From Longimicrobiales bacterium (GTDB taxonomy: Bacteria; Gemmatimonadota; Gemmatimonadetes; Longimicrobiales; Gaopeijiaceae), in the NCBI GenBank assembly GCA_965202985.1, contig CBDBCF010000001.1, positions 672,001 to 736,000 on the forward strand: a stretch of DNA of 64,000 nt, in the 5' to 3' direction. Position numbers and translations under genes: made by a program. Under the pieces are notes generated by a model that had not been told where the DNA came from, ran no database searches, and saw only the letters and a list, made by a program, of their open reading frames with translations. This document shows positions 9,589 through 55,609 of the stretch, one piece after another (positions within the stretch are counted from its first letter, which is position 1; every line of letters starts with the position of its first letter).

Positions 9589-12500
9589 CTACTCGAAGAC
9601 GATCCTGCCCGAGAGGCCGATGCGGCGTTCCGGAGGCTGGACGCCGCTGGCGACGTGCTCGCCGAACAGGTCCATCATCAAGCGCAGGCCGGGCGACCGG
9701 CTCCCGGAGGACTCGGTAAGTTGCCCCGTGGTCTCGCCGCCCAGCAACGACCAGCGGGTCCCCACGTTCACCCGATGGCCCGTCGGTCCCTCGCGGCTCC
9801 ACCGGCCGAACGGCTTGACCTGGGCACCGCCGGACAGCAGCACGCCGTAGCCGACCTCCATCGCCACGCGGTCGGGCGCCCAGCCCGGCGCGCCCGTGGC
9901 CGCCAGCACGCCGGAGCCTGCCGGGAGGCCCGGGCCTGCCTGCGAGCCGGCGGTCGAGCCGCCGTCAGCGCCCGACGCTCCCTGCGCCGACGGGTCGCCC
10001 TGGTTGTGAGCGAGTCCCGCGCCTGCTGGGACGTTCACGCCGACTGGCCGCACGGCGCCGACCGGCGCGCTGAAGCCGGCCGCGCCCGCGGTCCGCCACA
10101 CGTCCGCGCCCCCTTGCCACAGCGTCCGCGCGCCACCCCCGGCGTCGCCCCACGTCGGCTCGACCGAGAACGACAGCCCGCCCTCGCTCTCGCCCCCGCC
10201 GCCCGGCTGCAACCTCAGCGAGAACCCCGCGCCCCAGTCCTTGAAGTCGCGCTCCTGGTGCACCAGCAGCGCACGACCCCGCGCCGTCATGCTGAACCCG
10301 CTGGCTTGGTGCGCCAACCCCACCTCGGCGCCCGCCTCCGCGCCCATCCCCGTCTCCGCGTCGCCACCGTCGAAGCGACCCCCCACCTCGAACCGCGTCC
10401 GCATCGCCAGCCCGCCGCCCAACGACCACTGGCCGCCGATCTCCGGCGCCAGTCGCACGCGCTGCGCGTCCGCCGTCACGCCCGCCAGCCCCGTCACTTC
10501 GTCCGACAAGATGCGCACCGCGAAAGCGTCCGCCTTCAGCGCCAACCCGCCGGTCAGCTCCTGACGCACGCCCAGCGCGCCCATGCGCATCTCCAAGTCC
10601 GTGTCGAAACGGCCGCCCGCCGACTCATCGAGCGTCGCGTCGCCCCGGCCCGCGCCCGCCAAGCCCCACACCCCGAACCCGCCGCCGGACGACCAGTGCA
10701 GGTAGGGGTACAGGCTGGTCAGGCGAGCGTCGACCGATCCCGCGCCGTTGACGTCGCTGTCGAAGCCGGCCTCCATGTCGCTGCGCGAGCCCGCAAGGCC
10801 CATGAGGAACCCGGAGCCGAACCGGTAGTCCAGCCCCAGGTAGGCGGAGCGCGTGCGGCCGTCCATGGCGAAGCCGTCTCGGGGACGGCCCTCGAACTCG
10901 CCCAGGTTCGCCTGGCCCCACACCGTCCAGCCCGACCGGACAGCTTCGCTGGCTGCCGAGCCGGCCGAGCCGCCGAACGACAGCTGGAACGAACTCTGCG
11001 AGCGCAGGCCGCGGGCGTCGACGGGGTTGAACGTCAGGCCGCCCCGGTCGGCGCGAGCGCCGCGCTCGGCATCGGCTTGCTGTTGGCCCTGGTAGGAGCC
11101 GCCCATGCCGCCTGCGCCGCCCGCTGTCGGTTGACCGAATGCACCGCCCCGGCCGTCGCCGAACAGCAGCGCGGCCAAGTCGACAGTCCCGCCGGCCGCG
11201 TCCGGCGAGCCGGGGTGCGCGATCTGCAGCCCCAGCAGGCCCGTCGCGCCCCGCACCAGCGACTCGAGGCCGCAATGGCCCGAGCCGCCTGCATCGCCGT
11301 TGCCGCCACCTGCGGCCTGGCCCGAGCCGCCCGCGGCGGCATTGCCCTGGCCGTCGTCGGCTTGACCGTGCACTGCGTTCGCAACGTCGGCGAAGCCGCC
11401 GGCGCCGAATGCATCCGAGCCGCCCGTGCCGCAGGCCAGCGAGCGCCCGCCGAGCTGCACGTGCGACCGGCCCAGCGCGCCCGACGACCCCAGCCCCAAC
11501 CGCCCGCCGATCGCCTCCACCGTCTCCGTGCCCAGCGACCTGCCGAACGCCGCCAGCGTCAGCTCCAACGCACGCGCACGCTCCGACCGCGACGCCTCCA
11601 CCGTCACACGCACCTGCTGCTGAGCCGACAACCCGCCCGGATCGCTCGCGCGTACCGTCACCACAGCCTCGCCGATCGCCCGCGGCGCGATCGACAACCG
11701 GCCCGCGCCCGTCACCGTCGCAGCCGCCACGGCCGGCGACGACGATTCGACCGCGTACGCCAGCGCGTCGCCGTCCGGGTCCCGGAAGTACTGCCCCAAC
11801 TCCTCTTCCACCGCGGCGCCGTACGCCTCGAGCGTCTTCGGCGACATCGCGCCCACCGCCTCCGGACCCTCGTTCACGTCCAGCAACGTCACCGTCACGC
11901 CCGCCTCGGCCGTCAGTCCGCCCGCGTCCGTCGCCCGCACCGTCAGCGCGAACGTCGGCGGACCCGCCTCGTAGTCCTCGCCGCTCCCCACGTACCGCAC
12001 CTCGCCCGTCCGAGCGTCCACCTCGAACCGCGCGGCATCGCCTTCGGCCAAGCTGTACGCCGGCGCGTCGCCGCGGTCCGGGTCCGTCGCTTCGACCACG
12101 CCCAGCGTCAGCGGTCCGGCAGCGTTCTCCGCCAGCTCGAAAGCGTATGCGGAGTCCGCGAACGCCGGCGCCTCGTTCACGTCCACCAGCGCGACCGTCG
12201 CGGCGACCCGCGCCGCCAGTCCCTCGCCGTCGGTCGCCACCACCTCGAACTCCCAGGACGCCGGGCCCGCCTCGTAGTCCTCGCCCTCGCCCGCGTACCG
12301 CACCTCGCCCGTAACAGCGTCCACCTCGAAGAGCGCCGCGCCTTCGCCCGACAGGCTGTACACGAGCGTGTCCGCTCGGTCCGGGTCCGCAGCCTCGACC
12401 ATCCCCAGCACCAACGGTCCGGCGACGTTCTCCTCGAACTCCCACTCGTAGACCTCCGCAGCGAACACGGGCGCCTCGTTACGGTCCAGCAGCGCCACCG

Positions 12501-15500
12501 TCACCCGCGCAGACGCCGCGACGCCGCCGCGGTCCGTCGCACGGACCTCGAGCGCCCAGCTCTCCGGGCCCGTCTCCGCGTCCTCGCCTTCGCCCACGTA
12601 CCGCAACTCGCCCGTAACAGCGTCCACCTCGAACTGCTCGGCGGCGCCTTCGGCCAAGCTGTACGTCGGCGGGTCGTCCCGGTCCGGGTCCGTCGCCCGC
12701 ACCGCGCCCAGCACCAACGGTCCCGCAGCGTTCTCCGCCAGCTCGAACGCATATGCGCTGTCGACGAACGACGGCGCCTCGTTCACGTCCGCAACCATCA
12801 CCGTCGCCGTCGTCCGCGCCGTACGGCCCAGCAAGTCCGTCGCCGTCGCCTCCAAACGCCACATGCCTATGCTCGTCTCGTAGTCCTCGCCTCCGCCAAC
12901 ATACCGCAACTCGCCCGTGCCAGCGTCCAGCTCGAACCGGTCGGCGTCGCCCGCCACCAGCGCGTAAGTCAGGGTGTCGCCCTCGTCCAAGTCCACAGCC
13001 TCCATCACCCCCAGAACCAGCGGACCCGCAGCGTCCTCCGCCAGCTCGAACCGCCAACCGTCCTCGACGAACGACGGCGCCTCGTCGTTCTCGTTCACGA
13101 CCTTCACCGTCACCTTCGCCACCGTCTCGAGCTGCTCGCCCTCGCCCACGCCGTCCGTCACCGCCACCACCAGCATCACGTACTCCGAACGCTGCTCCGC
13201 GTCCTCGCCACCGCCAACGTAAGTCACCACGCCGCTCGACACGTCCACCTCGAACAGCCCCTCGCCTCCGCTCTCCAACCCGTAGCGCATCTCGGCGCCC
13301 AACGGACTCGTCGCAACCACCTCGCCCAGCGGCAGCGGGCCCGCAACGTTCTCCGCCAACTCGAACTCGTACTCCAACCGACCGAACACCGGGTCCAGGC
13401 TGCCCGCGCCGTTCACCGCGTGGTCCGCCAAGTCCGTCACCGCGTGCGCGCCCAGGTCCAGCGCCGCGAGCGTCGTGCCGCCCGCGATCCGCAGCGCGCC
13501 CGCCGACTCCGCCAGCGCGTCCGCCGGGATGCTGATCCCGTCCGGGTCCCGGTCCGCAGGACGGACCACGTACTCGAACGCCAGCACCGCAGTGCCCGAA
13601 CCCGACACGTAGACCGCGTGCCGCGTCGTCCCGCCCACGTCGATCGCCAACCGCGCCGCAGCCGTGTTCGCAGCCGTCGCGGCCGTCATCGACGCCGCCA
13701 GCGCCGGCGACGACGACGCGCCCGCCACATCGACCGGCCGGCTGAACGTCACCTCGACACGGATCACGCCGCCAGCGCCGTACAGTCCCGTCGCCACAGG
13801 CTCGCTCGTCACCGCCAAGCCCACCACCACCGGCGCGACCTCGACCGTACCGTCCACCTTGTCGGCAGCAGCAGCCGCAATCGCTTGGCCGCCCAGCGCC
13901 AGCGTCGCCGGACGAACGCCGTCCGCCGTGTTCACGATCGCACCGCCGTTCAGCGTCAACGCAGCAGCTGCAACGCCGACGCCGTCCGCGTCCGCGTCCA
14001 CCCCGCCCGTACCGCTGCCGCCGCTGCCCGCGCCCTGCACACGGTACGCGAACGACAACGTCGCCGTGCCGCTGCCGCCCGCGTAGCTCGCCTGACGCGC
14101 AACCGTCCCCACCGTCAGCGCCAGCTGCGGCGCGCCCGTCACCGTCACCGCACGGTCGAACGTGACCTGAACCTCGATCCGCTCGCCCAGCCCGTAGGTG
14201 TCCCCGCTCTCCGGCGCGCTCGACACCGCAACGCCGCTCACCGTCGCGCCCGCCAGCGTACCGTCCACCTTGTGGCCCGATGCCGCGCTCAACGCATGGC
14301 TGCCCAGCCCCAACGCCGCCGCCGTCGATCCGTCGCGGGCGTCCGCGATCGCGCCGCTGTTCAGCGCCAGCGCGCTCGCGCCGACCTCGATCCCGTCCGC
14401 GTCCGCGTCCGCAGCCACCACCGTGTAGCGGAACGTCAGCGCCCGCGTGCCCGTCCCGCTCGCGTAGTCCGCCTGCCGCGTCTGCGCACCCACCGTCAGC
14501 GCCACCCGAGGCGTGCCCGTCACCGTCACCCGACGGTTGAACGTCACCTGCACCTCGATCGACTCGTCGCGGCCGTACGTCGTCGCCACCGCAGGCGAAC
14601 TCGTCAGCGACACGCCCGACACCGCCGCCGCCGTGAAAGTACCGCCCGCAACCTTGTGGCCCGCGCTGTTCGTTACCGTGTGCGTCCCCAGCCCCAGAAC
14701 CGCGTCCACCGTCCCGCCCGCCACGTCGATCGTCCCGCCGTTCAGCGCCAACGCGCTCGCCGCGATGCTGATGCCGTCCGCGTCCGCGTCCGCAGTCACC
14801 ACCACGTAACGGAACACCAGCGACGCCGTGCCGCTGCCCGAAGCGTAGCCCGCCTGCTTCGTCGTGCTGCCGATCCCCAACGCCAGCTGCGGCGTGCCCG
14901 TCACGTCCACCGCCTTGTTGAACACCACCGTCGCAACCACCGTGTCGCCGCGCTCGAACGTGTCGCCGATCGGCGGCGACGCGATCGACACCGCGCTCAC
15001 GCCCGGCGGGCCCTGAGTGCCGTCCACCCGATGGCTGCCGCTGTTCGATATCGCATGGCCGCCCAACCCCAGGCTCGCAGCCTCGTTCGCGTCGCGAGCG
15101 TCCGCGATCGCGCCCCCGTTCAGCGACAACGCGCTCGCGCCGATGCTCAACCCGTTCGCGTCCGCGTCCGCTGCAACCACCGTGTAGGCGAACGACAGCA
15201 CGCGGCCGTCCGTCGTCGTCACGTACGACGCCTGCCGCGTCTGCGTACCGATCGTCAGCGCCAGCTCGGGCGAGCCCGTCACCGCCACGTTGCGGTTGAA
15301 CGTCACCTCGACACCGATCTCCTCGCTCAACCCGTACGTGCCCCCGCCCGCCGGACTGCTCGTTATCGTCACGCCCGACACCGACGCCGCCGTGAACGTA
15401 CCGCCCGCTACGCGCAGTGCGCCGTCGTCGCCGATCGCATGATGCTCCAGGCTCAGCAAGGCGTCCGTCGTACCGCCCGCAACGTCGATCGTACCGCCGT

Positions 15501-18500
15501 TCAACGCCAACGCGCTCGCGCCGATGCTCAACCCGTCCGCGTCCGCGTCCGCCGTCGCCACCACGTACCGGAACACCAACGCCGCCGTGCCCGTCCCCGA
15601 CGCATACGCAGCCTGACGCGTCTGCGAACCAATCCCCAGCGCCAGCCGCGGCCCGCCCGTCACGTCCACCGCCTTGTTGAATACAACCATCGCAACCACC
15701 GTGTCGCCGCGCTCGAACGTGCCGCCCGGCGCCGCCGCCACCGTCAACCCCGCGACACCCGGCGGACCCAGCCCGCCGTTCACCTTGTGCGAAGCGTCGT
15801 TCGTCACCGCGCTCGAACCCAGCCCCAGCGACGCGGCCGCAGCGCCCGGACGCACGTCGGCGATCGTCCCGCCGTTCAGCGTCAGCGCGCCCGCCGCGAT
15901 GCTCAACCCGTCCGCGTCCACGTCCGATGGTCGAACCGCGTAGCCGAACACCAGCGTGTCCGCCTTGCTCGAAGCCGACTCCCAGCTCGCCTGCCTGGTC
16001 GTAGTCCCGATCGTCAGCGCCAAGCGCGGCGCGCCCGTCACCGCCACCGGTCGCCCGAACGCCACCTTCACCTCGATCGACTCGCCCAACTGGTACGTCT
16101 GACCGCTCGCCGGAGCGCTCGATATCGTCACCGCAGTCACTGCCGGCACCGTGAACGTACTGCCAGACACCTTGTGGCCGCCGCTGTTCGTCACCACCAC
16201 GCCCGCGCCCAGCCCCAACGTCGCGTCCAGCGTCCCGCCAGCCAGACGGATCGTCCCGCCGCTCAACGTCAGCGCGCTCGCTGCGATGCTCAATCCGTCC
16301 GCATCCGCGTCGCCCGACGCCACCACGTACCGGAACACCAGCGACGTCGTGCCCGAACCGCTCGCGTAGCTCGCCTGCCTGGTCGCGCTCCCGATCGTCA
16401 GTGCGAGCCGCGGCGTGCCCGTCACGTCCACCGCGCGGTTGAACTCCAGCTCGACCTCGATCGTCTCGCCACGCTCGAACACGTCGCCCACCACGGGAGA
16501 ATCGATCGTCAGCGACGTCACCCCCGGCGGTCCCTGGCTCCCGTCCACCTTGTGCGCAGCAGCGTTCGATATCGCGTTCGAACCCAGTCCCAACGTCGCA
16601 GCCGTCGTGCCGCCCACCAGCACGATCGTCCCGCCGTTCAGCGTCAGCGCGCTCGCTGCGACGCCGATCCCCGTCGAATCCGCGTCCGCAGCAACCACCA
16701 CGTAGCGGAACACCAGCGTCCGCGTACCGCTCCCGCTCGCGTAGCTCGCCTGACGCGTCAGCGTGTCGATCGACAACGCCAGCTGCGGCGCCCCCGTCAC
16801 CGCCACCAAACGCTCGAACTCGACCTCCACCTCGATCGCCTCCGTGCGTCCGTACGTGCTGTCGCTCGCCGGCGCGCTCAATATCGCCACGCCGCTCACC
16901 GCCGGCGCCACCTCCTTCGTCCCGTCGACCTGGTACGCCACCGCGTCCGCGAAGTTCCACGGAACCAGCGACAGCCGAGCGTCCGTCGCCGTCCCCGTCG
17001 CTCGAATCGTCGCGCCGCCCGGCAACGTCAGAGCGTTCGCTCCGATGCTGATCCCCGTCGAGTCCGCGTCCGCCGCAACCACCGTGTAGCAGAACACCAA
17101 GATGTTGCCGCTCGTTACCGCGTCGCACTGCGCAGCGCTCCGCGTCTGCGCACCGATCCCCAAAGCCAGTCGCGGCGTGCCCGCCACCGTCACGCCCGTG
17201 TTGAACCCCACGCCCACCCGTATCTCGTCCCCAAGTCCGAACACGCTGTCCGTGCTCGCGTAAGAAATCCCGCTGTTCGTCGCCGACATGAAGAACACGC
17301 TCGTCACGTACGGCACGGCGCCCGAAACCTTGTGCGCCAAAGCGTTCGAAAACACGTGCGACCCCAACGCCAGGTCCGCCGCGTCCGACCGTTGCCGACT
17401 GTCGCCGATCGTGTCCGACGCGCTCACCGCCAAAGCGCCCGCGCCCACGCTGATCCCGTCCGCGTCCGCGTCCGTCGCCTGTACCACGTACCGGAACGTC
17501 ACACGCGTGAACGTCGCGTCCCTGCGGTTGTACTCCGCCTGACGCGTCGAGTCGCCGACCTCCAACGCCAGACGCGGCGTCCCCCCCACGTACACGCCCC
17601 GCACGAACTCCACCTCCACCTCGATCGCCTCGCCCCCCAAGTACGTGTCCCCAACCGCCGGACTGCTCGTTATCCTCAACCCCTTCACCACCGGCGCCGT
17701 CGCCGTGTTGCCCGCAACCTTGTGCGCCGCGCTGTTCGTTATCGCATGCGCGCCCAGACCCAACACCGCGTCCGTCGTCGTCCCCATCCGCCGAATCGTG
17801 GACCCGGACGGAGTCTCCAATGCGCTCGCGCCGATGCTGATCCCGTCCGCGTCCACTTGCTGCTGCGACACCGTGTACTCGAACTCCAACGACGTCGTGC
17901 CCGAACCCCTCCGGTACCACGCGTTACGCAAGCTCGACCCGACCCCGACACGCACCCGCGGCGTGCCCGTCACCGTCACCGCAGCGTTGAACTCCACCGT
18001 CACGACCACCACGTCGCCCAACTCGAACGTGCTGTCCGCCGGAGCATCGCCAATCGACACCCCCGTCACCACCGGACGGTCGCCCGCAACCTTGTGCGCC
18101 CCAGCGTTCGCGATCGCATGAGTGCCCAGTCCCAGCTCCGCCGTCACCGTCCCGCCCGCCTTGTTGATCGTCCCGCTGTTCAGCCCCAACGCGCTCGCTG
18201 CGATGCTCAACCCGTCCGCGTCCGCGTCCGTCGCTTGAACCACGTACCGGAACGTCAGCGAATCCGTCCCCGTCCCGCCCACGTAGCCCGCCTGCCGCGT
18301 CGCCGCTCCGATCCCCAACGCCACCTGCGGCGTCCCCACAACGTCCACCGCCTCGCTGAACTTCACCCACACCTCGATCCGGTGGCCCACCCCGTACGTG
18401 CTGTCCGAACCCGTCACGCTCGCCAAACCCGCGCCCGCCACCACCGGCACGCCCTGCAAACCATTCACCTTGTGCGCAGCAGCGTTCGACACCGCGTGCG

Positions 18501-20076
18501 CGCCCAGCGACAAGTCCGCCCGCTCCGTGCCCCCGACGCGCGTGATCGGAGTCGCGTAGTTGCTGAATGCGTTCGCCGGGATGCTGATCCCGTCCGCGTC
18601 CATGTCCGCACGCGTCACCGTGTATCGGAAGAACACGTCGTCCGCGTCCTTCGAGTACCAGCCCGCCGCCCGAACGTTGTCCCCGATCTCCAGGTTCAGC
18701 GTCATGTTGCCCAGAAAGTTCGGCGTCACCACCGCACGGTCGAACTGAACCCGCACGTTGACGTTGTCCCCCGCAGCGTACGTCGAGTCCGTCCCCGCTC
18801 CGCTCAAGAACGTCACCGCCGATATCCTCGGCACGATCAGCCCGCCGTTCACCTTGTGCGCACCAGCGTTCGTGACCGCGTGACTGCCGAGCGACAGCGT
18901 CGCGTCCACCGTCGTGCCCGCGTTCCTGATCGTCGCGCCGGACGGGACCGCCAGAGCGCTCGCGCCGATGCTGATCCCGTCCGTGTCTTCGTCCGCCGCC
19001 ACCACAGCGTACTCGAACACCAGCGAGTCCGTGCCCGTCCCGCTCGCGTAGTTCGCCTGCCTGGTCTGCGTGCCGATCCCTAAAGCCAGCTGCGGCGTGC
19101 CCGTCACGTCCACGTTCCCGCTGAACACCACCGCCACACGAATCCGCTCCGCCCGACCGTAAGTGCTGTCCGCAGCTACCGGCGTGCTCGCCACCGCCAC
19201 ACCGGTCACGGTAGCCGGTGGAATACCCACCACCTTGTGCGCCGCGGCGTTCGTGATCGCATGGCTGCCCAGACCCAGGATCGCGTTCTTCGTGCCGAGC
19301 CGGATCGTCCCGCCGTTCAGGGCCAGCGCGCTCGCGCCGATGCTGATCCCGTCCGCGTCCGAGTCCGCCGCCACCACCACGTACCGGAACACCAGCGACG
19401 CCGAACCCGTCCCGCTCGCGTAGTTCGCCTGCCGCGTCGAGTCGCCCACCGTCAACGCCAGCTGCGGCGTGCCCGTCACCGCCACCGTCGAGTCGAACGC
19501 CACCGTCACCGCAATCGTATCCCCAGTATCGTACGTGTTGTCGGCGCCCGCACTGCTGCTGATCGTCACACCCGTCACCTTGGGCAACCCCAGGGCGCCG
19601 TCCACCTTGTGCGCCGCCGCGTTCGTGATCGTATTGCCGCTCAGGCTAGCGTTAATAGTCAATCCAGATTGGAAGTTGTCAAGATCATTAGCCAGCGCGT
19701 TCGCGCCGATGCTGATCCCGTTCGCGTCCGCGTCCGTCGCCACCACGTGGTACCAAAACTCCAACCAGGTGAGCGGGAAACCACTGCGAGGCGGGTTTCC
19801 CGATGCGCAAGAAGCCCCAGCACAGGCGCTTCTGGTCGTCGCCCCGATCGTCAGGCCCAACGACGCTGTATTGTGGTTATGGCTCCAGTCGGCGCCGACG
19901 TTCAACCATATCCTTACCTTGATGGTGTCGCCCGCCACGTACGTGTTGTCCGCACCCGCCGAGCTGACGATCTTCAAGCTGTCCACGTTGCTTTGGGCGC
20001 TCAGCGGCGCCGGTGCCGCGATTCCGAACGCCGCCAGCAGGCCGAGGGCCGCGAGCGCGGTTCTGGCTACCGGCAT
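9589..20076 (-). CDS. Giant repeat-rich adhesin/autotransporter-like protein, copy 1 (3495 aa from ATG 20076; the RBS-preceded ATGs at 20138-20162 are out of frame across a poly-C tract)
   Basis: Signal peptide (MPVARTALAALGLLAAFG...LSAQ), 17 ~125-aa repeats (TY..G..I.V.V.F...V.VTGTPQLAL.IG..TRQA.YASG.GT..L.FRY.V...DAD.DGISI), 5 cadherin repeats (ELAEN, ATDPD, DVNEAPxF), one FRDPDGD domain, and a C-terminal region of amphipathic beta strands ending GRIVFE. Confidence 0.85.
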   Translation of the reverse strand: MPVARTALAALGLLAAFGIAAPAPLSAQSNVDSLKIVSSAGADNTYVAGDTIKVRIWLNVGADWSHNHNTASLGLTIGATTRSACAGASCASGNPPRSGFPLTWLEFWYHVVATDADANGISIGANALANDLDNFQSGLTINASLSGNTITNAAAHKVDGALGLPKVTGVTISSSAGADNTYDTGDTIAVTVAFDSTVAVTGTPQLALTVGDSTRQANYASGTGSASLVFRYVVVAADSDADGISIGASALALNGGTIRLGTKNAILGLGSHAITNAAAHKVVGIPPATVTGVAVASTPVAADSTYGRAERIRVAVVFSGNVDVTGTPQLALGIGTQTRQANYASGTGTDSLVFEYAVVAADEDTDGISIGASALAVPSGATIRNAGTTVDATLSLGSHAVTNAGAHKVNGGLIVPRISAVTFLSGAGTDSTYAAGDNVNVRVQFDRAVVTPNFLGNMTLNLEIGDNVRAAGWYSKDADDVFFRYTVTRADMDADGISIPANAFSNYATPITRVGGTERADLSLGAHAVSNAAAHKVNGLQGVPVVAGAGLASVTGSDSTYGVGHRIEVWVKFSEAVDVVGTPQVALGIGAATRQAGYVGGTGTDSLTFRYVVQATDADADGLSIAASALGLNSGTINKAGGTVTAELGLGTHAIANAGAHKVAGDRPVVTGVSIGDAPADSTFELGDVVVVTVEFNAAVTVTGTPRVRVGVGSSLRNAWYRRGSGTTSLEFEYTVSQQQVDADGISIGASALETPSGSTIRRMGTTTDAVLGLGAHAITNSAAHKVAGNTATAPVVKGLRITSSPAVGDTYLGGEAIEVEVEFVRGVYVGGTPRLALEVGDSTRQAEYNRRDATFTRVTFRYVVQATDADADGISVGAGALAVSASDTIGDSRQRSDAADLALGSHVFSNALAHKVSGAVPYVTSVFFMSATNSGISYASTDSVFGLGDEIRVGVGFNTGVTVAGTPRLALGIGAQTRSAAQCDAVTSGNILVFCYTVVAADADSTGISIGANALTLPGGATIRATGTATDARLSLVPWNFADAVAYQVDGTKEVAPAVSGVAILSAPASDSTYGRTEAIEVEVEFERLVAVTGAPQLALSIDTLTRQASYASGSGTRTLVFRYVVVAADADSTGIGVAASALTLNGGTIVLVGGTTAATLGLGSNAISNAAAHKVDGSQGPPGVTSLTIDSPVVGDVFERGETIEVELEFNRAVDVTGTPRLALTIGSATRQASYASGSGTTSLVFRYVVASGDADADGLSIAASALTLSGGTIRLAGGTLDATLGLGAGVVVTNSGGHKVSGSTFTVPAVTAVTISSAPASGQTYQLGESIEVKVAFGRPVAVTGAPRLALTIGTTTRQASWESASSKADTLVFGYAVRPSDVDADGLSIAAGALTLNGGTIADVRPGAAAASLGLGSSAVTNDASHKVNGGLGPPGVAGLTVAAAPGGTFERGDTVVAMVVFNKAVDVTGGPRLALGIGSQTRQAAYASGTGTAALVFRYVVATADADADGLSIGASALALNGGTIDVAGGTTDALLSLEHHAIGDDGALRVAGGTFTAASVSGVTITSSPAGGGTYGLSEEIGVEVTFNRNVAVTGSPELALTIGTQTRQASYVTTTDGRVLSFAYTVVAADADANGLSIGASALSLNGGAIADARDANEAASLGLGGHAISNSGSHRVDGTQGPPGVSAVSIASPPIGDTFERGDTVVATVVFNKAVDVTGTPQLALGIGSTTKQAGYASGSGTASLVFRYVVVTADADADGISIAASALALNGGTIDVAGGTVDAVLGLGTHTVTNSAGHKVAGGTFTAAAVSGVSLTSSPAVATTYGRDESIEVQVTFNRRVTVTGTPRVALTVGAQTRQADYASGTGTRALTFRYTVVAADADADGIEVGASALALNSGAIADARDGSTAAALGLGSHALSAASGHKVDGTLAGATVSGVAVSSAPESGDTYGLGERIEVQVTFDRAVTVTGAPQLALTVGTVARQASYAGGSGTATLSFAYRVQGAGSGGSGTGGVDADADGVGVAAAALTLNGGAIVNTADGVRPATLALGGQAIAAAAADKVDGTVEVAPVVVGLAVTSEPVATGLYGAGGVIRVEVTFSRPVDVAGASSSPALAASMTAATAANTAAARLAIDVGGTTRHAVYVSGSGTAVLAFEYVVRPADRDPDGISIPADALAESAGALRIAGGTTLAALDLGAHAVTDLADHAVNGAGSLDPVFGRLEYEFELAENVAGPLPLGEVVATSPLGAEMRYGLESGGEGLFEVDVSSGVVTYVGGGEDAEQRSEYVMLVVAVTDGVGEGEQLETVAKVTVKVVNENDEAPSFVEDGWRFELAEDAAGPLVLGVMEAVDLDEGDTLTYALVAGDADRFELDAGTGELRYVGGGEDYETSIGMWRLEATATDLLGRTARTTATVMVADVNEAPSFVDSAYAFELAENAAGPLVLGAVRATDPDRDDPPTYSLAEGAAEQFEVDAVTGELRYVGEGEDAETGPESWALEVRATDRGGVAASARVTVALLDRNEAPVFAAEVYEWEFEENVAGPLVLGMVEAADPDRADTLVYSLSGEGAALFEVDAVTGEVRYAGEGEDYEAGPASWEFEVVATDGEGLAARVAATVALVDVNEAPAFADSAYAFELAENAAGPLTLGVVEATDPDRGDAPAYSLAEGDAARFEVDARTGEVRYVGSGEDYEAGPPTFALTVRATDAGGLTAEAGVTVTLLDVNEGPEAVGAMSPKTLEAYGAAVEEELGQYFRDPDGDALAYAVESSSPAVAAATVTGAGRLSIAPRAIGEAVVTVRASDPGGLSAQQQVRVTVEASRSERARALELTLAAFGRSLGTETVEAIGGRLGLGSSGALGRSHVQLGGRSLACGTGGSDAFGAGGFADVANAVHGQADDGQGNAAAGGSGQAAGGGNGDAGGSGHCGLESLVRGATGLLGLQIAHPGSPDAAGGTVDLAALLFGDGRGGAFGQPTAGGAGGMGGSYQGQQQADAERGARADRGGLTFNPVDARGLRSQSSFQLSFGGSAGSAASEAVRSGWTVWGQANLGEFEGRPRDGFAMDGRTRSAYLGLDYRFGSGFLMGLAGSRSDMEAGFDSDVNGAGSVDARLTSLYPYLHWSSGGGFGVWGLAGAGRGDATLDESAGGRFDTDLEMRMGALGVRQELTGGLALKADAFAVRILSDEVTGLAGVTADAQRVRLAPEIGGQWSLGGGLAMRTRFEVGGRFDGGDAETGMGAEAGAEVGLAHQASGFSMTARGRALLVHQERDFKDWGAGFSLRLQPGGGGESEGGLSFSVEPTWGDAGGGARTLWQGGADVWRTAGAAGFSAPVGAVRPVGVNVPAGAGLAHNQGDPSAQGASGADGGSTAGSQAGPGLPAGSGVLAATGAPGWAPDRVAMEVGYGVLLSGGAQVKPFGRWSREGPTGHRVNVGTRWSLLGGETTGQLTESSGSRSPGLRLMMDLFGEHVASGVQPPERRIGLSGRIVFE
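11870..13400 (-). repeat. Five tandem cadherin-like repeats in copy 1
   Basis: Recurring ExAEN, DPD/DLD, EDYE and DxNEAPxF calcium-binding motifs at about 100-aa spacing; boundaries approximate. Confidence 0.85.
13400..19990 (-). repeat. 17 tandem ~125-135 aa beta-rich (probably Ig-like) repeats in copy 1
   Basis: Counted by the terminal HKVxG-type motif in the translation; boundaries approximate. Confidence 0.8.
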
Positions 20077-20116
20077 CGCGCGGACCCAGAACGCACGGGC
20101 CGGGCCGGTCGAAAAA

Positions 20117-20133
20117 GGGGGGGGGGGGGGGGG
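20117..20133 (-). repeat. Homopolymer tract G17 (+) / C17 (coding strand), candidate phase-variation site of copy 1
   Basis: Directly visible; lies between RBS-preceded ATGs (20162/20144/20138) and the signal-peptide ATG at 20076. Confidence 0.8.
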
Positions 20134-20141
20134 CTCATGTT

Positions 20142-20176
20142 CATCTGGGGTGTCCTCAGCATCTGGGTGTCCTCAG
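20142..20176 (-). promoter_or_regulatory. Tandem 17/18-bp duplication containing RBS and ATG (CTGAGGACACCC[C]AGATG x2)
   Basis: Plus strand catctggggtgtcctcag then catctgggtgtcctcag; each unit places GAGG 8-9 nt before an ATG. Confidence 0.7.
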
Positions 20177-20240
20177 CGTCCAAAGCGGTATCTGTCCTAT
20201 GCCTAACCTAACGTAAACTGGGGAAGATTCGGCGTTCACT

Positions 20241-21023
20241 TCAACGGCGGCGGCGTACCGGCGGGAGATCGTCGCCCTGGTCCGCTCGGGACGGTCGCCG
20301 GAGGCCGTGGCCCGCGCCGGACGGCCCGGCCAGCACGCGCGCTCCGTCGGGCACCCGAAAGACGAACAGGTCGGGCTTGATCTGCGGCGCAAAGTCCAGG
20401 TCCGCCAGGTCCATGGTGCGGACGCTTCCGTTCTCCTGGTGCACTTCCAGCCGGCGGATCACGTGCTCCTCCCGGTCGAGCCAGACTCTGGCCCGGTGAA
20501 AGGCGGCCCGGCCTTGGGGCTCGAGCTCCACGATGCGGCAGTTCCGACCCGCCACGACCTCCGATCCTCCGTCCGAGGCACGGTACTTCGCGCCCGGGTC
20601 CTCCAGAAACGCCCGAAACACGTCGTAGCGCCCCGGGGCCGTCGCCGCCGGGTACCGCACCACTTGGTCCTCTTCCACGCTGGGGTAGTAGACCCAGACG
20701 TGTTCGCCGTCGGACACCACCATGTCGCCATCGGGATCGTCGAAGCGCATGGAGAACAGATTCGGGCGCCGTTGGCATACGCGGCCGGCGCTCTCGACCC
20801 GGCGCCCCAAAAGACGCACTTCGACGACTTGGCGGAACGTCGCGCACACGGCGTCGACGCCTCGGTAGCGCGCGGCGGCGTCTTCCATGGCCCGAACGGC
20901 GTCGTTCGCGCCGGATCCGGTGCCGCCGGGCGGCTGGGCGCGCGCAAGGCCGGGGAGCACGGTCGCCACGCAGAGCGCGACGCAACCGGTCGCCGCCCGG
21001 AGCGCACGTCTCAACTGGGGCAT
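20241..21023 (-). CDS. lolA: Outer-membrane lipoprotein carrier LolA family (C-terminal tail runs into the cassette element)
   Basis: Signal peptide, ATFRQ, RPNLFSMRF..PDG..VVSDG..VWVYYP, F.F.VP.GA.V; follows ftsK. Confidence 0.85.
   Translation of the reverse strand: MPQLRRALRAATGCVALCVATVLPGLARAQPPGGTGSGANDAVRAMEDAAARYRGVDAVCATFRQVVEVRLLGRRVESAGRVCQRRPNLFSMRFDDPDGDMVVSDGEHVWVYYPSVEEDQVVRYPAATAPGRYDVFRAFLEDPGAKYRASDGGSEVVAGRNCRIVELEPQGRAAFHRARVWLDREEHVIRRLEVHQENGSVRTMDLADLDFAPQIKPDLFVFRVPDGARVLAGPSGAGHGLRRPSRADQGDDLPPVRRRR
20251..20311 (+). mobile_element. Remnant resembling IS3-family transposase orfA, identical to 54071..54131
   Basis: Translates AYRREIVALVRSGRSPEAVA; 61-bp identity to the second copy checked by eye. 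Confidence 0.65.
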
Positions 21024-23458
21024 ATCTCGTCCAGGCCGGCGGGACCGACCAGCACTTCCCGCGGCTTGGAACCGTCGGGGGGGCCCAGCACGCCGGCTTC
21101 GTGCAGCTGGTCCACGATCCGCGCGGCCCGCCCGTAGCCGATCCGTAGCCGGCGCTGGAGCAGAGACGTGGAGCCGGCGCCCTGCTGGATGCAGGCGTGG
21201 GCGGCCTCCCGGAAGAGGTCGTCCCAGTCTCCCTGGATCGTGCCCTCTTCGCCTTCTTCGTCGCCGCCCTCCGCCGCCCGCACGGCCTCCAGGATGTCGT
21301 CTTCGGCAAGGGCAACCCGGGCCTTGATCGCTTCCAGCGTGTCGGACTGCTCGCGATACCAGCCCATGAGGGCCTCGGTCTCCTCGGTGGAGATGAAGGC
21401 GCCCTGCATACGGACGGGTTCGCTATGGCCGGGCGGCAGAAAGAGCATGTCGCCGTGGCCCAGCAGCGAGTCGGCGCCGTTCTGGTCCAGGATCGTGCGC
21501 GAATCGGTCTTGGAGGCCACGCGAAAGGCGATCCGGCAGGGAAAGTTGGCCTTGATCAGGCCGGTGATGACGTTGACGCTGGGCCGTTGCGTGGCCACCA
21601 GCAAGTGGATGCCGATCGCGCGCGCCTTCTGGGCCAGCTGGGTCAGCGGCTTCTCGACTTCGGCCTGGACGGACATCATCAGGTCCGCCAGCTCGTCCAA
21701 GACGACGACCACATAGGGAAGCGGTCCTTCTTCGTACACCCAGCGCTCCGGGTCGCCCTCGGGTCCGGCCGGCTCGCTGCGTCGGAGCACGACGCCGTTC
21801 TCGACCCGCTGGTTGAACTCCTTCAGCGAGCGGACGCCGTTGGCGCTCAACAGGGCGTAGCGCCGCTCCATCTCCAGCACGGCCCACTTCAGCACGCCCG
21901 CGGCGTCCTTCGGGTCGGTCACGACGGGGTGGCGAAGGTGGGGAAGGTCGGCGTAGGCGGACAGCTCCACCATCTTGGGGTCGATCAGCAGCAGGCGCAG
22001 GCGGTCCGGGCCGTTCCGGTACACCAAGCTGGTGATGATCGTGTTGAGGCAGACGGACTTGCCCGAGCCGGTGGCGCCGGCGATCAGGCCGTGCGGCATC
22101 TTGCCCAGGTCGGTGACGAAGGGATGGCCGGTCAGGTCCTTGCCCAGCGCCAGCGGCAGCACGCCCCCGGCGCGGGCGAAGGCGGGCGCTTCCAGGATCT
22201 CCCGCAGCCGCACCATCTCCGGGCGCGGGTTGGGGATCTCGACGCCCACGGCCCCCTTGCCGGGGATCGGCGCCACGATGCGAACGCTCGTGGCCTTCAT
22301 GGCCAGGGCCAAGTCCGCGTCCAGGTTCGCGATCCGGCTGACCTTGACGCCGGCCGCGGGCACGACCTCGAACTGGGTCACCGCCGGCCCGGTCGTCCGA
22401 CCCCCGATCTCGGACTGGATGTTGAAGGTGCCCAGGGTCTCGACCAGGACCTCGCCAAGCCGGTCCAGCTCGGCCTCCATGTCCTGACGGTTCTTGGGTT
22501 CCGGCGGCGCCAGCAGATCGATGGCGGGCAAAGGATGGTCGCCGGGGGCCGGCTCGTCTTCCGGGAAGGAGTCCGGGTTCGAGACGGACTCCTCGGCCGG
22601 CGGCAGATACCCGCTGGCCGGGGGCTCGGCAGGCCCCGCTTCCGTCCAGGGCGCCGCGCTGGGCGACAGCGACTCCTGTCCCCCGGACTCCGAAGCGGCC
22701 GGCTCCGACGCCCAGGGCTCGGGTTCGCCGGCCAGCTCGTGTTCCGGGAGCGTCTTTCTTTCCTTTCGGCGCCCAGCGGCAGGCCTTCTTCGTTCTTTTA
22801 AGCTGGCGAACGCCGATCCCGCGGCAGAGCGTGCCGAGCGAGCGCCGCGGCTCAATCCGCGGGCGGACGCCGCGATGCCGGCAACGGCCAGCCCTGCCGG
22901 ATTGAAGCCGAAAGCGGCCACCGACAGGGCGACCCAGCCGGCGCCTGCCAGGAACATCACGCCAAACCATCCGACCACGCCGCACAGGGGCATCCCCAGG
23001 AGCCGGGCGCCAAGGTACCCGGTCGCCTCCACGCGCCGAGAGGCCGGCGCGCACGCCTCGACCGGCAACGGAGGGGCCAAGTAGGCCGTGAAGGGCAGCA
23101 GAAGCAGCAGCCCGCCCGTCAGGATCCAGGCCCGCTTCCGCAGTTCGGGCGATCCCCATCGGCCGAACGCCGCAGCAGCCGCCAGCAGACCGAGCGGGAC
23201 CGCCGCGGCCCCAAGTCCCAGCGCTCCCACGAGCGCGTCTCGAAGGGCTTGTCCGGCCCGCCCCAGCGGATTGCCCGGCGGCAGCAGACCCAGCGCGTCG
23301 AACGGGAACAGAGCCACGGCAACCAGAAACGCTGCAACCCCGGCTACGGCCGCGAACGCCCGGTCCGGCCCTCCTCCTCCGCGAGCCGCGGCGCCCTTTG
23401 CGTTCTTCCGTCGTCCGCCCGCGCGCGCGACGCCCTTGGTCGTCCGTCGCGACGCCAT
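21011..23458 (-). CDS. ftsK: DNA translocase FtsK/SpoIIIE
   Basis: N-terminal TM segments, GATGSGKSV Walker A, LIDPKMVEL, ATQRPSVNVITG, gamma domain STSLLQRRLRIGYGRAA. Confidence 0.95.
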   Translation of the reverse strand: MASRRTTKGVARAGGRRKNAKGAAARGGGGPDRAFAAVAGVAAFLVAVALFPFDALGLLPPGNPLGRAGQALRDALVGALGLGAAAVPLGLLAAAAAFGRWGSPELRKRAWILTGGLLLLLPFTAYLAPPLPVEACAPASRRVEATGYLGARLLGMPLCGVVGWFGVMFLAGAGWVALSVAAFGFNPAGLAVAGIAASARGLSRGARSARSAAGSAFASLKERRRPAAGRRKERKTLPEHELAGEPEPWASEPAASESGGQESLSPSAAPWTEAGPAEPPASGYLPPAEESVSNPDSFPEDEPAPGDHPLPAIDLLAPPEPKNRQDMEAELDRLGEVLVETLGTFNIQSEIGGRTTGPAVTQFEVVPAAGVKVSRIANLDADLALAMKATSVRIVAPIPGKGAVGVEIPNPRPEMVRLREILEAPAFARAGGVLPLALGKDLTGHPFVTDLGKMPHGLIAGATGSGKSVCLNTIITSLVYRNGPDRLRLLLIDPKMVELSAYADLPHLRHPVVTDPKDAAGVLKWAVLEMERRYALLSANGVRSLKEFNQRVENGVVLRRSEPAGPEGDPERWVYEEGPLPYVVVVLDELADLMMSVQAEVEKPLTQLAQKARAIGIHLLVATQRPSVNVITGLIKANFPCRIAFRVASKTDSRTILDQNGADSLLGHGDMLFLPPGHSEPVRMQGAFISTEETEALMGWYREQSDTLEAIKARVALAEDDILEAVRAAEGGDEEGEEGTIQGDWDDLFREAAHACIQQGAGSTSLLQRRLRIGYGRAARIVDQLHEAGVLGPPDGSKPREVLVGPAGLDEICPS

Positions 23459-25580: not shown

Positions 25581-25600
25581 GACTGGCAGGGCTCCCGGCG

Positions 25601-26682: not shown

Positions 26683-26717
26683 TCGCGGTCGTGGTTCGTT
26701 GCGCGTCGCGGAAGGAG

Positions 26718-30051: not shown

Positions 30052-30079
30052 CGCTCGTCCCGGCTTTGGCCCGTTCCTT

Positions 30080-30730: not shown

Positions 30731-30775
30731 GGTTCCCTCCCGGCTGCTCCTTGGCTGGTGGCGAACGCCGCCCCC

Positions 30776-37999: not shown

Positions 38000-38003
38000 C
38001 GCT

Positions 38004-38528: not shown

Positions 38529-38598
38529 GACCTAGCCCGACGGCCCGACGGGAAGGAGAAGCCGCCGGGAAACAGAAAGCCGGCCCCTCAGCAGGCCT

Positions 38599-39468: not shown

Positions 39469-39494
39469 TCCCCTCCCCCCGGTGGTCGGCCGGC

Positions 39495-40076
39495 TTAGCG
39501 GAGGTTGCCGCCTCCGGCCGTTATTACGAACTCGACCCGGCGGTTCCGCGCCCAGGCGGACTCGGTCGATCCCTGTGCGGCCGGCTGTTCCTCGCCGTAG
39601 GAGACCGACTCGAACCGGTTCGCGTCCAGGCCGAAGCCGCCGATGAACTCGATCACCGCCTCGGCGCGCGCATTGCCCAAGGCGATGTTGTACTCCGAGG
39701 TGCCCCGTTCGTCGGCGTGGCCCTCCATGCGGAGGCGCACGTCCGGGTTGCTCCGAAGGATCTCGGCCTTGGCCCGGAGCAGATCTTCGGTGTCCGACCG
39801 GATGGCGGCCTCGTCGTAGTCGAAGTAGACCGTCTCGACCAGCGTCCGGCGGTTCTCTTCGGCTTCCCGGGCGGCCTCTCGCTCCATGCGCTCCTGCTCG
39901 GCCCGCCTTGCCGCTTCCCGTTCGGCGCGGACCTGAGCGAGGGAGTCGAGCCGGCGCTGTTCCAGCTCTTCGGGCGTGGGGCCCGTGGGCGCGGGCGGGA
40001 GTTCGGGCTCCGCGCCGCAAGCGGCAAGGAACACGACGGCGGCGAGGGCGGCGGCAAACAGGCGATGGTTGGACAT
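39495..40076 (-). CDS. pal: Peptidoglycan-associated lipoprotein (OmpA family)
   Basis: Lipobox LAAC, VYFDYD, EGHADERGTSEYNIALG..RA, SYGEE.P, NRRVEF. Confidence 0.93.
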   Translation of the reverse strand: MSNHRLFAAALAAVVFLAACGAEPELPPAPTGPTPEELEQRRLDSLAQVRAEREAARRAEQERMEREAAREAEENRRTLVETVYFDYDEAAIRSDTEDLLRAKAEILRSNPDVRLRMEGHADERGTSEYNIALGNARAEAVIEFIGGFGLDANRFESVSYGEEQPAAQGSTESAWARNRRVEFVITAGGGNLR

Positions 40077-40139
40077 CCCGTCTCCGATTATGCTGTGGAG
40101 GTCACGTTGTGGCGAAGGCGGCTTCGGTTTGGTTGTTGT

Positions 40140-40168
40140 AGAATATGCAAGCGGTCCCGCATTTGCAA
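40140..40168 (-). promoter_or_regulatory. Putative sigma70-type promoter for pal-cpoB
   Basis: Minus strand TTGCAA, 17-nt spacer, TATTCT, in a relatively AT-rich patch about 65 nt upstream of the pal ATG. Confidence 0.5.
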
Positions 40169-40298
40169 GCAAGCAGCACCGGCGCGCGTGTCGAACCACA
40201 GTAAAAATGTCCGGGAGCAGTAGAACGAGCGAACGAGTGCCGCGGCATCCGGACGATTGCCTCGGGCTCGTCTCGAGATCGTGATTCGCCGGCTCCCG

Positions 40299-53987
<13,689 letters not shown>

Positions 53988-54055
53988 GTCCTCACCGTCC
54001 GAAAGGGCTCTTGTCTTGTCCCAGCGTAAGCTGGGAAGTTGGGAAGATTTCGGCG

Positions 54056-55609
54056 TCAAGTCAACGGGATCGGCGTACCGGCGGGAGATCGTCGCCCTGG
54101 TCCGCTCGGGACGGTCGCCGGAGGCCGTGGCGCGCGAGTTCGAGCCGTCGGCCGCCAACCTACGCCCGCGGATGGGCCGCCTTGTAGACGCGGCGCAGCC
54201 GCTCCTTGGACGCCGGGCGACGCCAGCGAGGGCGACCAGTCCGTGTCTTCGGCTTCGACGCCCGCGACGAGAATGCGGGTGCGGCCCGTTGCCGCGTCGA
54301 CCACGAAGACGCCGTGCCCGTAGCTGCGTTCGCCGGTAAACACGATGTGCCTGGAGTCGGGTGCCCAGCTCGGGTCTTCGTTGTTCCCTTCCGTGGTAAG
54401 CTGAACCAGGCGTCCCTCGCCGCCTTGGGTGTCGGCAACCAGGATTTGGAAGCGGGTGCGACGTCCTTCGGCGCGCCCGGAGAAGGCGACCTGCGTGGAG
54501 GCGGGGGACCAGTCGGGGTCGGTGAAGTGGCCACCTTCTCCGTACTGGTAGGGCGACAGCAGGACGGCCTCGCCGCCCGTGGACGGCATGACGTAGATCT
54601 GGGGGGTGGCGGTGCCCAGACGGCTGGACGTGAAGGCGACCTGCCGGCCGCCCGGCGAATAGGTGGGCTGCAGGTCGATGTGGTTGCCGCCGCCGATCCT
54701 GGACGGGTTGCAGCAGGCTCCGCGCAGGTCCACGGTGAACAGCTCGCTCCGGCGTCCGTTCAGGCGGGCGAAGGCGATCTCGCCCCCGTCCGGGTGGTAG
54801 GCGGGGGTGATCTGCTGGCCGTCGGCGCCGGTGGCCAGGGCCCGCGACTCCTCCGACGCCACGTCCATTTCGTACAGCGTCGGGAACCCGCCCTTCCACG
54901 ACACGTAGGCGATGCGCCCGCCGTCCGGAGACCACGCGGGCGAAGCGACCAAGTTCTCGTCCCAGGTGACGCGCCGCAGGTTCTCGCCGTCGGCGTCGAC
55001 CACGTACAGCTCCTTGCTGGTCGGGTCGTTGCGCGGCCGCATGGCGAAGGCGATCCGGCTCGCGGCCATCCCCGGTTCGCCCGTGATCCACTCCACGACG
55101 GCGTCGGAAGCGGCGTGCACGGCCAGCCGGAAGTCGGGATCGTCCGGCGCGGGAACGGAGAAGCGGCGACGCGCGCGCAGGTTGGCGAAGACCACGTCGT
55201 GGACCTCGATCTCCAGCACGAACCCTTCGGCGGTTCCGTCCAGCCCGCCCTTGACCAGCCAGTCCGCGCCCAGGCCGTCCCACAAGCCGTAGTCCACGCC
55301 CCTGCCGGCCAGCGCCGCGGGCAGGGAGTCGACGACTTGGAAGCGGTCGGAGTAGCGAAGGTCGCGGACCACGATGTCGTGGACGCCTTGGGCTTGGCTT
55401 TCTCCACCGAAGCGGCCTTCGAAGGGAAGCACCGCGATCGGCGGCACGTAGGTGGTCTCGTAGACGGTCCCCAGCGACACGCCGGGGATCGTCGCCTCCT
55501 CCTCTTGGGCAGCCAAGCCGTGCGCCCACGCCAAGACGCCGCCGGCCCACGCCGCGGCGCACCCGATCGCGAGGGGCCGTCGCCTGCCGGTGGGCGGTTG
55601 CCGGCGCAT
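54056..55609 (-). CDS. tolB: Tol-Pal beta-propeller protein TolB (C-terminal tail runs into the cassette element)
   Basis: DLRYSDRF N-domain, repeated P.WSPDG/P.YSP PD40 blades; follows tolQ/R/A-like genes. Confidence 0.88.
   Translation of the reverse strand: MRRQPPTGRRRPLAIGCAAAWAGGVLAWAHGLAAQEEEATIPGVSLGTVYETTYVPPIAVLPFEGRFGGESQAQGVHDIVVRDLRYSDRFQVVDSLPAALAGRGVDYGLWDGLGADWLVKGGLDGTAEGFVLEIEVHDVVFANLRARRRFSVPAPDDPDFRLAVHAASDAVVEWITGEPGMAASRIAFAMRPRNDPTSKELYVVDADGENLRRVTWDENLVASPAWSPDGGRIAYVSWKGGFPTLYEMDVASEESRALATGADGQQITPAYHPDGGEIAFARLNGRRSELFTVDLRGACCNPSRIGGGNHIDLQPTYSPGGRQVAFTSSRLGTATPQIYVMPSTGGEAVLLSPYQYGEGGHFTDPDWSPASTQVAFSGRAEGRRTRFQILVADTQGGEGRLVQLTTEGNNEDPSWAPDSRHIVFTGERSYGHGVFVVDAATGRTRILVAGVEAEDTDWSPSLASPGVQGAAAPRLQGGPSAGVGWRPTARTRAPRPPATVPSGPGRRSPAGTPIPLT
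54071..54190 (+). mobile_element. Remnant resembling IS3-family transposase orfA N-terminus (HTH), longer copy
   Basis: Translates AYRREIVALVRSGRSPEAVAREFEPSAANLR, matching the (F/Y)RR..V.LVR.GR.PE.LAREFEPS pattern of IS3-family OrfA; no orfB present; right boundary approximate. Confidence 0.7.

Follow-up and report, generated by a model that had tools for sequence, protein, structure and literature searches.

The question raised by this locus is what a long, uninterrupted run of cytosines is doing directly in front of the signal peptide of a giant surface protein. The window analysed here, a stretch of 64,000 nucleotides (nt) from an uncultured Longimicrobiales bacterium (assembly GCA_965202985.1, contig CBDBCF010000001.1, positions 672,001 to 736,000), carries two paralogous giant adhesin genes, copy 1 and copy 2, both on the minus strand and each with such a poly-C tract at its 5' end. 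We show that these genes belong to a dispersed family whose members differ at the tips of their products, and we propose that expression of the adhesins is probably gated copy by copy through slippage in the poly-C tract that separates the signal peptide from a start codon further upstream, the tract acting as a translational frame switch. The genome of the window (G000) is a 3.86-Mb assembly in two contigs (C1 and C2) from sponge metagenomes, with a G+C content of 68%, rising to ~70% in the window; four genomes of the genus were compared, and the congeners G001 and G003 recur below. Members of the family outside the window are named by contig and position.

Read on the coding strand, both copies present the same order of elements: a 61-bp block that is identical in the two loci (20251-20311 and 54071-54131; 0 matches in 100 shuffles), the motif TGAGGACA, a set of ATG codons, a pure poly-C tract of 17 nt in copy 1 and 28 nt in copy 2, a leader and the ATG of the signal peptide, behind which follow repeats, cadherins and a C-terminal barrel (Table 1). 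This common layout had been described in an initial annotation of the DNA, and it is borne out here, with some corrections. The placing of the tract after TGAGGACA and an ATG also stands, with the correction that its real place is between these upstream ATGs and a further ATG, that of the signal peptide, from which it is separated by leaders of 40 and 53 nt, each of a type unrelated to the other. When the tract is placed in silico, its length modulo 3 sets the frame that enters the signal peptide. With 17 C's, the upstream ATGs of copy 1 are out of frame by one base and would be in frame at 18, while those of copy 2, as assembled, are in frame through the tract and give the product MPKMPPPPPPPPPQATFFRQAWIGRQVRSVL-MPVART.... 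Copy 1 has two copies of TGAGGACA (20168-20175 and 20151-20158) with an ATG after each, inside a 17-nt tandem duplication (gctgaggacacccagat / gctgaggacaccccagat, 20143-20177, minus strand) that doubles the TGAGGACA-ATG unit ahead of the gene.

The two proteins are 79% identical over 3519 aligned columns and are colinear across the C-terminal ~2575 residues. Both start with MPVARTALAALGLLAA...LSA/Q, which reads as a Sec signal peptide composed of MPVAR, a hydrophobic core and LSA/Q. The periodicity of the sequence gives ~17 units in copy 1 and ~25 in copy 2, each of ~126 residues and with the tip unit counted in; in an AlphaFold model the first two units (mean pLDDT 76) form two beta-sandwiches whose best PDB matches are immunoglobulin (Ig)-like and fibronectin type III-like domains. 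The only Pfam match in both proteins is Cadherin (PF00028), near the C-terminus, at 121 and 106 bits (cut-off 28.8) in 5 and 3 stretches, respectively, and the N-terminal 520 residues match no Pfam or NCBIfam family. For the barrel, whose modelled region starts after a Gly-rich linker, an AlphaFold 2 model of the C-terminal 482 residues predicts 12-13 long strands in antiparallel order, at a pLDDT of mostly 60-79, the final 200 residues being modelled poorly. The best PDB matches of this model in Foldseek are the autotransporter beta domains of BrkA, Hbp, EspP and NalP (E 3e-7 to 5e-5; target TM-scores ~0.5). The C-terminal 600 residues match neither PF03797 nor any other Pfam or NCBIfam family (searched up to E = 5 and E = 1). 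By predicted fold and by layout the proteins are autotransporter-like adhesins outside PF03797, a wording we adopt because the matches are those of a fold model, with no Pfam or NCBIfam match beside them.

A search of G000 for the barrel returns 15 genes, which rules out the idea that only two copies exist and agrees with the earlier proposal of a multi-copy family. The further expectation of a poly-C tract in every copy is true of ten of the fifteen, which have a 5' run of 16-28 C's; four have no run and one has 12 G's before its signal peptide. The last of these (C1:1804336) and one of those without a run (C1:2579885) have open frames of 13,057 and 11,123 codons, respectively. Among all G/C runs of at least 9 nt in G000, which number 40, 14 are of 9-12 nt and 26 of 15-33 nt; there is none of 13 or 14 nt. 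Eleven of the 26 long runs are followed, after 0-60 nt, by open reading frames (ORFs) of 1370-5033 residues, always with C on the coding strand (11/11), and we refer to these as the giant loci; the eleventh of them, C2:788096, is without the family barrel.

Long homopolymers are a feature of the genus. Counts of overlapping 15-mer matches are 186, 208, 41 and 210 in its four genomes; two closed genomes from other genera have 17 and 2. Of runs of at least 15 nt, 23 are in G001, where at least 9 precede family-type signal peptides, and 38 are in G003, with at least 4 family-type signal peptides that have a run in the same slot. Near-identical paralogues (98.4-99.5% identical downstream) have tracts of 28, 21 and 26 nt, and in four between-species pairs, whose 5' DNA is 86-94% identical, the lengths are 28/28, 22/26, 24/21 and 28/19; every tract in these comparisons is uninterrupted. 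Loss of mismatch repair was considered as the cause of the long runs and ruled out, MutS_I being found in 29 and MutL_C in 30 of 31 genomes, G000 among them in both cases.

The products of the family present different tips on a common stalk, as had been suggested from the window itself. In three near-identical genes, residues 30-150 of the protein, the tip, are 41-50% identical and the following 280 residues 94-96%. The variable N-terminal repeats of the initial annotation are to this extent real, but the sharp part of the variation is mainly in the first domain (about residues 30-150) and not in the repeats in general. In the tip alignment the Ig framework is conserved and the loops are divergent. 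At the level of DNA, copy 2 is 98.4% identical to C1:1473803 from nt 454 to the end and 99.5% identical to C1:7023 over nt 452-4147, and copy 1 is 93.6% and 94.2% identical to C2:882214 and C1:411155 from about nt 440. The same tip types are found again in G001, at 83%, 98%, 88% and 92% identity and at other chromosomal sites. Between these two species the first 3 kb of the giant genes are 91-96% identical, against 72-80% for the 3' part and 70-83% for six housekeeping genes, and at third codon positions the identity falls from 92-94% in the 5' end to 68-74% in the 3' end. In two of four pairs the homology starts exactly at the homopolymer; in the remaining two it starts at the signal peptide. 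Taken together, these comparisons suggest that stalks and barrels are under concerted evolution within the genome and that 5' parts may have been shared recently between species.

How, then, might the tract work? In the frame switch that we favour, translation would initiate at the ATG immediately upstream of the tract, the tract would be translated as poly-proline and its length modulo 3 would set whether ribosomes continue into the signal peptide. With the assembled lengths, copy 2 would be ON and copy 1 would be OFF, one base out of frame; transcripts would probably originate upstream, perhaps by read-through out of the tol and ftsK-lolA genes, and each cell would have a random subset of tips on display. 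What points this way is the placing of start codons and ribosome-binding sites. An ATG with an open frame lies no more than 12 nt upstream of the tract in 7 of the 11 giant loci, against a genome background of 0.08, and no more than 30 nt upstream in 10 of the 11, against 0.195, the loci being partly non-independent in that C1:7023 and C1:1473803 have a common upstream flank. In the assembly, 3 of the 11 have their upstream ATG in frame. GAGGA-type motifs stand at a suitable distance ahead of the upstream ATGs in both window loci, and none precedes the signal-peptide ATG in nine MPVART-type loci; the anti-Shine-Dalgarno sequence of the 16S rRNA is canonical, and strong Shine-Dalgarno motifs are found at 24% of crudely called starts, against a background of 5%.

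The same design recurs in a congener. In G003, 10 of 30 tracts examined have AGGAGA-N5-6-ATG, then the homopolymer at once or after 1-4 bases, and then an ORF; in these loci (L113, L114, L127, L131-L133 and L136-L139) 15-22 C's after the AGGAGA-N5-6-ATG lead into GAATTCCGTGACGG.... The ten loci head small Cys-rich peptides, and several are clustered near G003:C1:2689146-2689927. In G000 itself, a run of 22 G's lies directly ahead of the hydrophobic core of the signal peptide of a TonB-dependent receptor, with no start codon between the two. Scans for sigma-70 promoters and for terminators found 0 sites on either side of either window tract, which is a weak negative result. Further points in favour are the C on the coding strand of all 11 giant loci, the recurrence of the run in one slot before family-type signal peptides in G001 and G003, the varying lengths of runs that stay pure and the gene classes at the other tracts of G000; the lability of length is supported by differences between paralogues and between species only.

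Several observations weigh against the frame switch. Since the signal peptide comes with an ATG of its own and its n-region (MPVAR) is normal, the upstream ATG may be dispensable for translation of the gene; the peptide between tract and signal peptide is not conserved, and a 1-nt indel between the leaders of near-identical paralogues alters the predicted extension. In one out-of-frame register of the type-B leader, a short upstream ORF ends at a TGATG that overlaps the signal-peptide ATG, and OFF may therefore mean coupled, reduced translation and not silence. One between-species pair has tracts of equal length (28/28), and G000 has genes for MutS and MutL. Single-locus ON/OFF calls are unreliable because the length of a homopolymer in a long-read assembly can err by 1-2 bases. 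No contig from five public sponge sequencing runs (X1, X2, X9 and X10 at copy 2; X1, X2, X3 and X9 at copy 1; 11 runs matched in all) bridges either tract, as judged from assembled Logan contigs only, so that variation in length within a population could not be read from them. In C2:788096, G001 L067 and G003 L112, a subfamily whose giant gene is without the family barrel, the tract lies directly before a perfect TTGACA, and a promoter-type switch is likely there. Whether a frame stays open across the leader was set aside as a criterion for coding, since these short G+C-rich leaders are mostly open in all three frames.

This last subfamily, with its three orthologous loci in three species, is also an argument for a transcriptional switch in the family at large, in which the tract would lie in or just upstream of a promoter, its length would tune transcription and translation would proceed from the signal-peptide ATG, as the normal n-region and the unconserved leader peptides would allow. 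We consider this explanation unlikely: tracts of 19-28 nt are too long for a 17-nt spacer, no promoter-like site is seen in the 40-53-nt leaders or upstream of them, and both the overrepresentation of start codons right in front of the tract and the Shine-Dalgarno-ATG-homopolymer design of G003 are left unexplained. That the tracts are a neutral by-product or an artefact, that is, runaway homopolymers from a lineage-specific slippage bias or from assembly error that build up where they are harmless, would fit their abundance across the genus and the four barrel genes without one. We hold it to be very improbable, given that their placement is non-random (at 5' ends, with C on the coding strand in 11/11, in the same slot in three species and in independent assemblies) and that short-read contigs of independent samples end at the tract, as a real homopolymer would cause them to do.

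Another explanation is that the tract is mainly a joint for recombination. Its opposite strand is poly-G, always of at least 15 nt and enough for a G-quadruplex, and it could serve as a universal stretch of identity or as a break-prone structure for exchange of 5' tip cassettes, any effect on expression being secondary or additional. Besides the between-species gradient of identity, the pairs whose homology begins exactly at the homopolymer and the gap in the length distribution at 13-14 nt, this reading draws on the window loci, which are homologous upstream of the tract and unrelated just downstream, on copy 2 and its 98-99% identical paralogues, which have the leader in common and the upstream flank not, and on G-quadruplexes beside antigenic-variation loci, as described in passages of PMC3547852, PMC3585125 and PMC4412290. 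The same picture would arise if the tract were merely the 5' limit of a duplicated unit, however, and tracts also head genes without paralogue cassettes (SusC-like, methylase-like and small-peptide genes); as a sole or main role we think it quite unlikely, and it is in any case compatible with the frame switch. A combination of the two, in which the homopolymer would be both a frame switch for each adhesin gene and a universal joint (at least 15 identical bases, the opposite strand capable of a G-quadruplex) for swapping tip cassettes among paralogues and among species of the same sponge, is a tentative and rather unlikely proposal; were it true, the symbiont community would share and reshuffle a common pool of adhesin tips.

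Both window copies lie directly behind envelope genes, with lolA and tolB upstream, and other family copies are also located among housekeeping genes; on these points the first reading of the window was right. At copy 2 the gene order is tolQ, tolR, tolA-like, tolB, the adhesin, pal and a tetratricopeptide-repeat gene. In five of five relatives, three congeners and two members of other genera, tolB and pal are adjacent with no intervening run. At the site of copy 1, all three congeners have lolA, then an unrelated 1.5-kb gene, then kdtA, with neither a giant gene nor thiD. A comparison of empty and filled sites had been suggested earlier; neither site has the giant gene in any of the three congeners, relative to which the two window copies are insertions. 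The native ends of the tolB and lolA frames are lost (54059-54223 and 20244-20316), and foreign C-terminal tails of ~55 and ~20 residues stand in their place. The 113 nt past the stop codon of copy 2 (window 40188-40301) are 94-96% identical to the 3' flank of another member (G000 C1:2771751-2771891), and because copy 2 has this flank in common with the other member, the duplicated unit reaches just beyond the gene. Parts of the loci are present in sponge metagenome runs from several studies, and a contig of the independent run X9 spans the junction of tolB with the insertion sequence (IS) remnant without a difference; JGI metagenome contigs gave 0 matches each to the leader pattern and to the signal-peptide pattern. 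That copy 2 is an assembly duplicate is ruled out by its own flanks and by the X9 contig, and the second copy is genuine.

Table 1. Positions in the window of the two giant adhesin genes, their 5' elements and their neighbours.
Feature	Position	Strand	Remarks
Giant adhesin gene 1 (copy 1)	9589..20076	-	3495 residues, counted from signal-peptide ATG
Gene 1 signal peptide	19996-20076	-	
Gene 1 tip domain	about 19597-19995	-	
Gene 1 further Ig-like repeats	down to 13399	-	~16, each ~126 residues
Gene 1 cadherin region	11590-13398	-	
Gene 1 Gly-rich linker	11038-11592	-	
Gene 1 barrel	9592-11037	-	
Poly-C tract of copy 1	20117..20133	-	17 nt, uninterrupted; 40 nt upstream of signal-peptide ATG
Copy 1 upstream start region	20136..20175	-	ATGs 20160-20162, 20142-20144, 20136-20138, all one frame
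Transposase (HTH_Tnp_1 type) gene remnant, copy 1	20168..20316	+	holds 61-bp block; 3' end of lolA ORF enters it
lolA	20244..21023	-	housekeeping gene directly upstream of gene 1; ftsK at 21014-23458
Giant adhesin gene 2 (copy 2)	40299..53894	-	4531 residues from signal-peptide ATG; 4559-4562 from in-frame upstream ATGs
Gene 2 signal peptide	53814-53894	-	
Gene 2 tip	about 53409-53813	-	
Gene 2 further repeats	down to 44196	-	~24
Gene 2 cadherin region	42390-44195	-	
Gene 2 linker	41763-42389	-	
Gene 2 barrel	40302-41762	-	
Poly-C tract of copy 2	53948..53975	-	28 nt, uninterrupted; 53 nt upstream of signal-peptide ATG
Copy 2 upstream start region	53976..53994	-	TGAGGACA at 53987-53994; ATGs 53985-53987, 53976-53978
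Transposase (HTH_Tnp_1 type) gene remnant, copy 2	53987..54212	+	holds 61-bp block; tolB ORF reads ~55 codons in
tolB	54059..55711	-	tolQ, tolR and TonB_2/TolA-like gene upstream at 55612-57652
pal (OmpA family)	39498..40199	-	likely start near 40073, MSNHRLFAAALAAVVFLAACG; gene 2 parts pal from tolB
~14.1 kb between tolB and pal, present in G000 only	40085..54223	-	homology of relatives stops near 54223 and resumes near 40085

The 61-bp block next to both window tracts belongs to a longer piece of ~150-165 nt, of which G000 has four copies, none at full length. Its own match in the window is to HTH_20 only and is weak (E 0.02), and homologous ORFs in two relatives (G003 and G008) match PF01527 (HTH_Tnp_1) at 34.9 and 32.6 bits, over a cut-off of 24.1. 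Because these homologues pass the cut-off, we regard the piece as a putative leftover of a transposase OrfA gene, oriented away from the adhesin. The IS3-like fragment of the initial annotation holds to the extent of such an OrfA-type remnant; no DDE (rve) transposase and no full-length IS3 element were found with it, all four genome copies being fragmentary. At copy 2, TGAGGACAT, read on the other strand, also forms the start of the divergent transposase-like reading frame. The annotation had also proposed an IS-derived 5' end shared by the family. This we can rule out, as the remnant adjoins the tract directly in 2 of the 11 giant loci, the window copies only; of the remaining two fragments, one is located 1.8 kb upstream of a gene and the other ~0.8 kb downstream of a different gene, and the 5' neighbours of other members are a DDE_3 gene, a DDE_Tnp_1_4 fragment, a Transposase_31 gene or no such gene. 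Elsewhere in G000, cgtgaataaggcgggatgatg beside a DDE_Tnp_1_4 transposase fragment precedes runs of 16 and 9 C's (C2:67287 and C2:280386), where the ATG ahead of the run may be supplied by an IS end.

Homopolymer-driven phase variation is textbook biology of host-adapted pathogens, and the gonococcal Opa family is, by analogy, the closest in logic to the family described here. Neisseria gonorrhoeae has ~11 dispersed paralogous Opa adhesin genes with a repeat tract in the leader-peptide coding sequence of each, the frame deciding expression, as set out in sections of PMC3745409, and the regions that vary between copies are host-exposed according to parts of the same report and of PMC13183285. 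Dispersed adhesin paralogues, a repeat in each copy and regions variable between copies are thus common to both, with switching in the present family predicted from sequence. Opa, in contrast, is a small 8-stranded barrel of a human pathogen and is switched by a CTCTT pentamer, whereas the present proteins have 3,400-5,000 residues, Ig-like and cadherin passengers and a homopolymer of 16-28 nt, in a 68% G+C genome and a sponge host.

Other known systems share single features with the family. Autotransporters of the type of NalP, MspA and those of Bordetella pertussis have shorter tracts and beta-helical passengers. The phase-variable NalP and MspA of N. meningitidis and the tracts of B. pertussis resemble the present genes in that a homopolymer stands close to the 5' end of the gene and the product is a surface protein whose barrel is C-terminal (portions of PMC3723659 and PMC1891110), but are single genes and not a tip-diversified multigene family. 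The type Va translocators (BrkA 3qq2, Hbp 3aeh, EspP 2qom and NalP 1uyn) give the best structural matches to the modelled C-terminal domain of our proteins, in which, as there, an N-terminal signal peptide is combined with a predicted C-terminal barrel; our proteins differ in having no Pfam or NCBIfam match, in ~200 extra residues with extra strands after the 12-13 confident strands, and in a passenger that is Ig-like and cadherin instead of a beta-helix. Giant repeat adhesins of the MpIBP type are type I secreted adhesins of the repeats-in-toxin (RTX) class with a C-terminal secretion signal. The ice-binding adhesin MpIBP (4p99), which is among the fold matches of the tip-plus-repeat model, likewise has a tandem Ig-like stalk and a distal binding region, but here an N-terminal signal peptide and a C-terminal barrel are present. 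In the antigenic variation of pilE, which a G-quadruplex initiates, a G-rich element likewise stands at the 5' edge of a gene, the variable part of which is replaced there by gene conversion (PMC3547852 and PMC13463697, in part); with a pure homopolymer here and no silent cassettes identified, the likeness is a lead only.

We regard the family as a real and well-organised contingency-type adhesin repertoire in which switching is predicted. A literature search found no paper joining sponge symbionts with phase variation or homopolymer tracts, and the main text of the Palauibacterales paper makes no mention of cadherin, adhesin, autotransporter or homopolymer. What differs from the known systems is the organism and its habitat, the length of the tracts, the size and build of the proteins and the tip/stalk pattern common to species. 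A pathogen-type logic would here operate on a larger scale (26 runs of 15-33 nt in a genome of 3.9 Mb, and about ten giant adhesins that all have a run of their own), with one copy located inside the tol-pal operon, and in an uncultured high-G+C symbiont of an animal without adaptive immunity. Were the runs to switch, surface types would be maintained as a random mixture in the symbiont population, with a bearing on attachment and on the escape of sponge symbionts from phagocytosis or phages. With stalks homogenised within the genome and tip types common to species, the family also lends itself to the study of concerted evolution together with cassette exchange, and long reads from the source sample could test the claim of switching directly.

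Other tracts of G000 stand at an outer-membrane receptor, at methylase-like ORFs and at an acyl-esterase-like family, gene classes that are typical of contingency loci. Runs of 18-30 nt lie at the starts of ORFs resembling DNA methylases or restriction-modification enzymes (G000 C1:1559168 and C1:2443104; G001 L077; G003 L124), which are candidates for phase-variable methylation. At three paralogous loci of G000 (C1:236913-236934, C1:844542-844565 and C1:945326-945346), 21-24 C's lie between a conserved coding end, ..NMLDYW..RVNRWGFLDR, and an ORF starting VAVVGDSFV; these may form a phase-variable family of surface-modification enzymes. Both contig starts of G000 (C1:1-7100 and C2:1-13000) lie inside giant genes, placing the assembly breaks within the family; the C1:7023 gene, when continued into C2, has stop codons after codon 1370, and either this gene may be broken or the C1/C2 join that was tried may be wrong. 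The translation of poly-proline depends on elongation factor P, the gene for which is found at window 26104-26763, between the two adhesin loci, a location that is probably a coincidence.

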